A stretch of 64,000 nucleotides of DNA. Source: Escherichia coli (GTDB lineage Bacteria; Pseudomonadota; Gammaproteobacteria; Enterobacterales; Enterobacteriaceae). A model generated the notes under the pieces. That model had not been told where the DNA came from. It worked only from the letters and a program-made list of their open reading frames with translations, and searched no databases. How positions within the stretch are numbered: position 1 is the stretch's first letter; the number at the start of each line of letters is the position of its first letter. A program made the translations under genes and the position numbers. The stretch lies in NCBI RefSeq assembly GCF_046105845.1, contig NZ_CP151004.1, one strand, 5' to 3'. This document shows, one piece after another, positions 9,579-10,320 of the stretch.

Positions 9579-10320
9579 CGTGCTGATATGCATTTTAATA
9601 TGTTGCACAAATGCGCAGGCAGGAGTTGTTGTTGGCGGTACTCGTTTTGTTTACCCAGAAAAGCAGTCATCAATTTCGGTCGAGCTTAAAAATACTGCCA
9701 GTAAAGATATGCTGGTTAAAATTTCCGTGACACCTGATGATGGACGTCAGTTAAAAGGGACACTGGAATCCCAGCCTTTACTTCCAGATAAGGCGTTTAT
9801 TGCCACACCACCATTATTGGTACTTAAACAAGATAAAAATACCAAAATAAGAATCAATCGCGTGGGGGGGCAGTTACCTATAGATCGTGAGAGTTTATTT
9901 ATACTGAATGTTGCAGCGTTACCTGCTCAGGAACAAAACTCACAGCTCAAGAATGAAAATCAACTCCAGGTGGCTGTACGTAATAGGATGAAAATATTTT
10001 ACCGCCCGGAGACGTTATCAGGTAATCCACTTGACGCTTATCAACAGTTACGCTGGTCGCGAAAGAATGAAGCTGTCACCGTTTTTAACCCTACGCCCTG
10101 GTATGTGACACTCTATAATTTATCTATTGATGGTAAAAGCATAAATGGTGGCATGGTTGCACCGTTTAGTCATCGCCAACAGGATTGGTGTCAGCGGCAA
10201 GGATATTGTGAGATTAACTGGCAAACACTGGATCTTTACAATAATGCCTTACCCGTATGGAGCGTAAAATTAAATGTTTTACAAAATAATGTGATGAGTG
10301 CAGTAGCGATACATGGATAA
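9571..10320 (+). CDS. second periplasmic fimbrial chaperone (PapD-like)
   Basis: Signal peptide MINVLICILICCTNAQA, motifs GGTRFVYPEKQSSISVELKN, LFILNVAALPA and NRMKIFYRP; start ATG at 9571 overlaps the upstream pilin stop (tATGATTAA). The ORF track's upstream Met at 9520 is less likely. Confidence 0.82.
   Translation: MINVLICILICCTNAQAGVVVGGTRFVYPEKQSSISVELKNTASKDMLVKISVTPDDGRQLKGTLESQPLLPDKAFIATPPLLVLKQDKNTKIRINRVGGQLPIDRESLFILNVAALPAQEQNSQLKNENQLQVAVRNRMKIFYRPETLSGNPLDAYQQLRWSRKNEAVTVFNPTPWYVTLYNLSIDGKSINGGMVAPFSHRQQDWCQRQGYCEINWQTLDLYNNALPVWSVKLNVLQNNVMSAVAIHG

Follow-up and report, generated by a model that had tools for sequence, protein, structure and literature searches.

A seven-G run in the aufF-like chaperone gene of an auf-type fimbrial operon of Escherichia coli is probably an incidental frameshift hotspot

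Introduction

Is a run of seven G residues inside a fimbrial chaperone gene an evolved device for turning the gene on and off, or an incidental place where the gene breaks? The question is raised by a 64-kb stretch of Escherichia coli DNA (hereafter the window). In the original prediction, slipped-strand mispairing at this G7 tract would frameshift the chaperone and, through coupling, affect the downstream adhesin, thereby providing an ON/OFF mechanism for adhesin incorporation. In E. coli, indels become exponentially more frequent as runs lengthen, and G.C runs of 7 to 8 bp are outlier hotspots (PMC8510543). Here, we examine the tract and its gene, the length of the tract in complete genomes and public contigs, the haplotypes on which length variants occur, other homopolymers of the same operon, and the corresponding site in orthologues.

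The tract lies in the aufF homologue of an auf-type operon

The window contains a seven-gene chaperone-usher operon (positions 4273 to 11464) located between glgP and glpD. It encodes, in this order, a subunit, a chaperone, an usher, two further subunits, a second chaperone, and an adhesin-like subunit (376 to 383 aa), and all seven genes are intact (Table 1). The island between glpD and glgP has been named the auf operon, with the two chaperones AufB and AufF (PMC12928451). Auf of the uropathogenic strain CFT073 (aufABCDEFG, in which AufF, c4208, is the second chaperone) shares with the window operon the seven-gene order, the two chaperones, and the glgP/glpD site (PMC5956150, PMC12928451). 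CFT073 AufF also aligns end to end with the window AufF, including RINRVGG-LP-DRESLF. Given the glgP/glpD site and the naming of the auf operon, we assigned the gene harboring the tract as an aufF homologue and the next gene as an aufG homologue.

The window and B2-type aufF genes are only ~70% identical at the nucleotide level, although they occupy a common chromosomal site and their products align over the full length. The B2-type operon further differs in having GTT GGT GGC, without a homopolymer, at the site of the tract and three extra hypothetical genes before glpD. The window operon is best called an auf-type allele class, with a putative function. A comparison with 5,426 complete E. 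coli genomes placed this class in 227 of them (95 to 100% identity), and the second class (~70% identical, including B2 strains such as Seattle 1946) was found at the same site in 557 further genomes.

The aufF product has both domains of a PapD-like periplasmic chaperone (PapD_N, PF00345, E = 6.7e-30; PapD_C, PF02753, E = 1.4e-7), is accompanied in the operon by an usher and five Fimbrial-domain genes, and is labeled “fimbrial biogenesis chaperone” by PGAP in 227 genomes. The tract reads gcgtGGGGGGGcag in the window, with the seven G's at 9864 to 9870, and in its longer context aatcgcgtGGGGGGGcagttacc, with the G7 at these same positions. In the frame of the open reading frame that starts at 9520 or 9544 and ends at 10320, the codons are CGC GTG GGG GGG CAG (R V G G Q). 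Both the sequence and the PapD domains bear out the prediction that the G7 tract lies inside the second chaperone gene.

The tract is placed 41% into aufF, not near the 5′ end. As in a contingency locus, it is in frame within the gene, so that a change of one base toggles the reading frame: translation of a G6 allele ends after 112 aa and that of a G8 allele after 115 aa, the intact protein having 258 aa. The tract is the sole G/C run of at least 7 in the 64 kb, where 3.55 ± 1.8 such runs are expected under a first-order Markov model of the window; thus, G/C runs are not enriched in this stretch. The aufG start lies 13 nt past the aufF stop, and aufG has its own GGAG Shine-Dalgarno sequence. 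A premature stop ~430 nt upstream might exert polarity on aufG, and an effect of AufF loss on AufG is speculative.

Over its 777 nt, the window aufF is 100% identical to that of strain VCSW7 (NZ_CP082357.1), a Hong Kong soil isolate with a 4.73-Mb genome, and only ~98.5% identical to the common clinical allele, indicating that the window operon is a minority haplotype. aufF also shows in-frame 3-nt length polymorphisms, one at a GTT GTT GTT (VVV) repeat past the signal peptide (9625 to 9633) and one near the C-terminus (10292). These indels at 9625 and 10292, and not the tract, account for the 801- versus 804-bp lengths of aufF.

Table 1. Coordinates of the auf-type operon and its homopolymers in the window
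Feature	Position	Strand	Evidence
aufA-like major subunit gene	4273..4977	+	ORF/domain evidence, PGAP
aufB-like first chaperone gene; control A7 run at 5359-5365	5098..5850	+	Domain evidence
aufC-like usher gene	5892..8483	+	Usher, PapC_N, and PapC_C domains
aufD-like minor subunit gene	8483..9046	+	ORF/domain evidence, gene calls in other strains
aufE-like minor subunit gene; 3′ end overlaps aufF start by 35 nt	9054..9578	+	ORF/domain evidence
aufF-like gene for the second periplasmic chaperone, 258 aa; an alternative ATG lies upstream at 9520	9544..10320	+	PapD_N, PapD_C
G7 homopolymer, ±1 slippage site	9864..9870	+	Sequence, codons (GTG GGG GGG, Val-Gly-Gly); G6/G8/G5 alleles elsewhere
aufG-like adhesin/tip subunit gene, 376 aa; Shine-Dalgarno GGAG at 10323-10326	10334..11464	+	C-terminal Fimbrial domain, PGAP coordinates
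Control A7 run inside the aufG-like gene	10868..10874	+	Sequence

Tract length among complete genomes

The tract was compared across isolates by using an 86-nt query centered on it, for which a single difference lowers the identity below 99%. Among the 227 complete genomes with this allele, 219 have G7, four have G6 (three ST2747 assemblies and K_EC180), three have G8 (Ch1, HCP5S3_I2, and LCP30S3_I5), and one has a substitution in the flank. The G6 and G8 aufF genes are flagged “frameshifted” by PGAP. Thus, the tract is not always G7, and the invariance that would have spoken against the original prediction was not observed.

About 97 to 99% of carriers have G7 and about 1 to 3% are variants, a prevalence that holds as an order of magnitude only, since the contig and index-block counts that enter it (see below) do not correspond to independent isolates. 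Tract lengths peak sharply at G7, with thin shoulders at ±1, and do not display the spread, with ON and OFF lengths both common, that is seen in contingency loci. A metagenome scan with a pattern open to any tract length returned six contigs, all of them G7, which are too few to inform.

G6 and G8 alleles are real, while G5 alleles are mostly artefacts

The complete genomes alone are ambiguous as to whether the variants are real. A search for other homopolymer indels within 40 kb of the complete-genome variants revealed an rtcA G5-to-G4 change in Ch1, a gntT C3-to-C2 change in ST2747, and two odd gntT insertions in HCP5S3_I2. For this reason, we searched a collection of 15 billion proteins for exact matches to the truncated products predicted for each tract length (Table 2) and classified variant loci as clean or error prone. 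The in-frame G4 and G10 products had no contigs in this collection.

Table 2. Contigs and index blocks matching predicted aufF products in the 15-billion-protein collection
Product	Contigs	Index blocks
Full-length major allele	At least 1000	15,989
G6, 112 aa	152 (+12 with a longer start)	228
G8, 115 aa	75 (+3 with a longer start)	106
G5, 114 aa	61	62
G9, 113 aa	1	

For the classification, 28 variant loci were fetched (10 G6, 10 G8, and 8 G5), and other frame-disrupting indels were counted over the 7.4-kb operon. The possibility weighed here is that all G6, G8, and G5 alleles are sequencing or assembly errors and that the tract is truly invariant. Some of the assemblies are indeed visibly poor: L020, L025, and L058 have 11 to 26 other frameshifts each, many of them in CCWGG and G-run contexts, and six of the eight G5 loci carry further deletions in G runs and CCWGG motifs, which is a signature of long-read error. 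The nearby rtcA and gntT changes in Ch1 and ST2747 point the same way, as does one run series (L055, L056, and L060) in which differing homopolymer states occur on a single haplotype. Raw contig counts are therefore somewhat inflated by error-prone assemblies.

Against this possibility, 8 of 10 G6 loci and all 10 G8 loci are free of other frame-disrupting indels over the 7.4 kb, and their A7 runs are correct. Many of these loci come from NCBI drafts with Illumina-type contig sizes or from ~35-kb Logan contigs, and several of the contigs were found in two to four samples or with one to six further similar places. Examples of clean variant assemblies are GCA_900479155.1 and ERR2853744 with G8 and GCA_022972715.1 and GCA_012977865.1 with G6. 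Besides, the insertion that produces G8 is not a typical homopolymer-compression error. The clean/dirty classification thus rejects long-read error as the source of all G6 and G8 alleles and largely upholds it for G5. G6 and G8 alleles are real, G5 alleles are mostly artefacts, and a truly invariant tract is very unlikely.

In the error-prone assemblies (L020, L025, L058, and L062 to L065), single-base deletions cluster in CCAGG and CCTGG, i.e., Dcm sites, and in G runs. A deletion pattern of this kind is helpful for separating real homopolymer alleles from long-read artefacts.

Length variants recur on many haplotypes

Distances between loci were obtained from a 6.2-kb gap-free flanking alignment with 292 variable sites. 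The variants are spread over many haplotype clusters, and differing tract states occur on identical or near-identical haplotypes. Cluster 15 contains G7 (L038 and L045), G6 (L024), and G8 (L031, L032, L034, L036, and L037) loci, and the three states occur together in cluster 3 as well. G6 is joined by G8 in cluster 10 and by G7 in clusters 11 and 16. When only clean loci are considered, the number of backgrounds is at least 8 for G6 and at least 4 for G8, and the haplotype clusters imply at least 12 to 14 independent events. Length polymorphism among close relatives, another mark of contingency loci, is therefore present, at ~1 to 3% prevalence.

The sharing of haplotypes between tract states, together with the many backgrounds involved, indicates a slippage site that is hit recurrently. 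To this extent the predicted slipped-strand frameshifting of the chaperone stands, given that G6 and G8 recur on many haplotypes and truncate the protein at about residue 112 to 115.

Comparison with the A7 runs of the same operon

The A7 runs of aufB and aufG served as controls. For the aufB run, the −1 product was found in 119 contigs (132 blocks) and the +1 product in 6 contigs; for the aufG run, the corresponding numbers are 70 and 16 contigs. Thus, frameshift variants of the A7 runs reach about a third to half of the G7 frequency. The aufB A6 alleles occur on several haplotypes, and some of the operons that carry them also have an aufF G6 or G8. An apparent enrichment of aufF G6/G8 in aufB-A6 operons (4 of 10 shown) was dropped as a frequency, since identical neighborhoods are listed once and rare combinations are thereby inflated.

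In complete genomes, the aufB A7 run had no exact A6 or A8 variant (0 of 210), compared with 7 variants among 227 for the G7 tract (Fisher p = 0.015). G7 is the most fragile site of the operon, perhaps by 2- to 3-fold or more, and its difference from the A7 runs is one of degree, not of kind.

The operon also decays in other ways. No match to the 86-nt aufB segment holding the A7 run was found in 17 of 227 complete genomes, indicating that partial operon deletion is commoner than G-tract frameshift, and split ushers and an IS insertion are found among the decayed operons as well.

K_EC180 lacks ~1 kb (window 4828 to 5822; L006 15446 to 16069) comprising the 3′ end of aufA and all of aufB. The aufG-like gene of ST2747 has 879 nt versus 1131 nt (window 10727 to 10987; L007 20513 to 21391) because 252 nt are missing in frame from the part that encodes the N-terminal half of the adhesin, where receptor binding putatively resides. 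The gap between aufG and glpD (window ~11600 to 11950; L001 9087 to 10451) holds a frameshifted partial hypothetical remnant annotated by PGAP, and strain 2012C-4221 has an IS621 insertion between these two genes. In the B2-type island (L010 9100 to 11188), three intact hypothetical genes of 711, 768, and 606 nt precede glpD, while the window type is devoid of them.

The run is absent from orthologues

B2-type aufF genes keep the RINRVGG peptide but encode it with CGT GTT GGT GGC or CGT GTC GGT GGT, so that there is no run. The Escherichia fergusonii orthologue, which is 92.7% identical, has GGC ATG GGT GCT TCA (GMGAS) at the site, and no G/C run of at least 5 occurs anywhere in this orthologue. 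Hence, neither the over-representation nor the conservation across orthologues that would characterize a contingency locus is seen. Judging from these alignments, the run appears to result from the codons used in one allele class, and the loop concerned seems to tolerate amino acid change.

Discussion

In our view, the G7 tract is probably an incidental fragile site, i.e., a frameshift hotspot in a dispensable operon, and not an evolved switch. The GTG GGG GGG run would have arisen by synonymous codon choice in one auf-type allele class, in what is likely a variable loop immediately preceding the conserved AufF motif LPxDRESLF. It would be the most frameshift-prone site of the operon because indel rates climb steeply with run length. 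Replication slippage, the presumed cause, would occasionally turn it into G6 or G8 and cut AufF at the residues given above, yielding a heritable and presumably nonfunctional aufF-null allele. Such alleles would arise repeatedly and stay rare (~1 to 3%), as in a mutation-selection balance under weak purifying selection. Selection on the auf-type operon would be weak but not absent, and the operon dispensable. In the mouse urinary tract infection model, Auf was not a fitness factor, and TosR is the only known regulator of auf (PMC5956150).

Some observations do not sit easily with a hotspot and nothing more. G7 is more variable than the aufB A7 run, so that it is not one homopolymer among equals; GGG GGG is an unusual codon pair that selection might maintain within this allele class; and the presence of G6, G7, and G8 on identical haplotypes would also fit fast, reversible switching. 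Two of them, the greater variability and the shared haplotypes, lend themselves to the view that G7 is a true contingency switch, evolved or retained in the non-B2 class, which turns AufF reversibly off and on and controls AufG incorporation through AufF itself or through polarity. Such a switch would draw on the truncation of the chaperone by any ±1 change and on the many backgrounds that carry G6 or G8, some of them identical to G7 haplotypes, and tracts this short can phase-vary elsewhere, as with C6 in Bordetella bvgS (cited in PMC1891110).

Nevertheless, we regard an evolved switch as unlikely. About 97 to 99% of carriers are at the ON length, the length distribution is not broad, and no in-frame variants were found in the protein collection. 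Neither B2 aufF nor the E. fergusonii gene has the run, despite the conservation of the protein around it, and G/C runs are not enriched in the window. Furthermore, the aufB and aufG A7 runs also frameshift, the operon is also lost by deletion and IS insertion, the tract is not near the 5′ end of its gene, and aufG is preceded by a Shine-Dalgarno sequence of its own. In Listeria inlA, a coding run that is likewise 7 bases long mutates at 4e-8 to 5.5e-7 (PMC2831843), well below classical phase variation. The preponderance of G7 in complete genomes (219 of 227) and in index blocks (15,989 versus 228 for G6 and 106 for G8) is indirect evidence of a low switching rate within clones, where a phase-variable locus would switch reversibly at about 1e-5 or more per cell and generation. 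As for the ON/OFF mechanism of the original prediction, nothing indicates one that evolved or is regulated, given the share of G7, the missing run in orthologues, the lack of enrichment, and the similar behavior of the A7 runs.

Another proposal is that the non-B2 G7 serves as a reversible mutational switch, specific to this lineage and operating at low frequency; loss of the second chaperone would then change the tip or adhesin composition of the Auf-type fimbria. We consider this quite unlikely as well. If it were true, slipped-strand phase variation at a coding homopolymer would be described for the first time in a chaperone-usher fimbria of E. coli. This species would then have a third fimbrial phase-variation mechanism, beside inversion and methylation, and the tract would offer a handle on what the second Auf chaperone does.

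Alternatively, transcriptional slippage or ribosomal frameshifting on the G run might rescue the frameshifted alleles, with tract length tuning the AufF dosage, a scenario that we regard as extremely improbable. In enterobacteria, transcriptional slippage is efficient only where A/T runs reach a length of about 9, and seven G's without a stimulatory structure are not known as a recoding signal. No direct evidence in favor of this scenario was found; transcriptional slippage on long homopolymers has been mentioned for the poly(A) tracts of Buchnera (PMC2831843).

Several known systems resemble the hotspot that we favor or the switch that we doubt. With respect to switches, pilC of Neisseria also has a coding poly-G tract in a gene associated with pilus assembly and adhesion, and a ±1 change switches the protein off. 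With its greater length and its place in the signal-peptide region, however, the pilC tract switches frequently, and both ON and OFF states are common, whereas the aufF tract has only seven G's and about 97 to 99% of its carriers are ON.

The closest match to the aufF G7 is the 5′ poly(A) run of Listeria monocytogenes inlA, which is A7 in lineage II and a “stabilized” A2GA4 in other lineages (PMC2831843). In common with the aufF tract, this run counts 7 bases, lies in the coding part of an adhesion gene, is confined to one lineage and interrupted in others, and undergoes recurrent natural frameshifts. The inlA −1 frameshift recurs in natural isolates, its mutation frequency being ~1000 times that of point mutations, yet only ~1e-7 (PMC2831843). 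The two tracts differ in that the inlA run is poly(A), sits in the adhesin gene at its 5′ end, and has had its reversion measured experimentally, while the aufF run is poly(G), lies mid-gene in an accessory chaperone, and changes by both −1 and +1.

Single-base differences between isolates have also been described for G/C homopolymers in or near fimbrial and surface genes of Bordetella pertussis, i.e., fimX C7/C8, bapC G10, tcfA, and bvgS C6, in a study that poses the question of stable between-lineage “microevolution” versus rapid phase variation (PMC1891110). Unlike the aufF tract, the Bordetella fim tracts are longer and located in promoters, and G/C tracts of more than 8 bases are over-represented in the Bordetella genome, which is not the case in the window.

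If the incidental hotspot is the right explanation, “frameshifted” aufF calls will keep appearing, partly as real alleles and partly as long-read artefacts, and annotators and fimbrial-profile typing schemes should treat the G7 site as a known hotspot. The locus would then be a clean natural case of a lineage-specific fragile site brought into an accessory adhesin operon by a single synonymous codon choice, and matched run-free orthologues are available for comparison.

Other homopolymer variation near the operon

A poly-T run (4156 to 4161), which precedes the aufA start by ~112 nt, has six T's in the window and is T6, T7, T8, or T9 across other strains, which makes it far more variable than G7. 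Its length is sometimes mixed within a haplotype cluster (T6 in L026 versus T8 in L043, L008, and L029; T7 in L013 versus T8 in L022 and L041). A promoter scan around this run gave no more matches than in shuffled sequence. The poly-T run lies within an AT-rich upstream region, and a published AT-rich motif is enriched upstream of TosR-responsive genes. Between gntT and nfuA (29119 to 29124), the window has an intergenic G6, while four other strains (L006 to L009) have G5.
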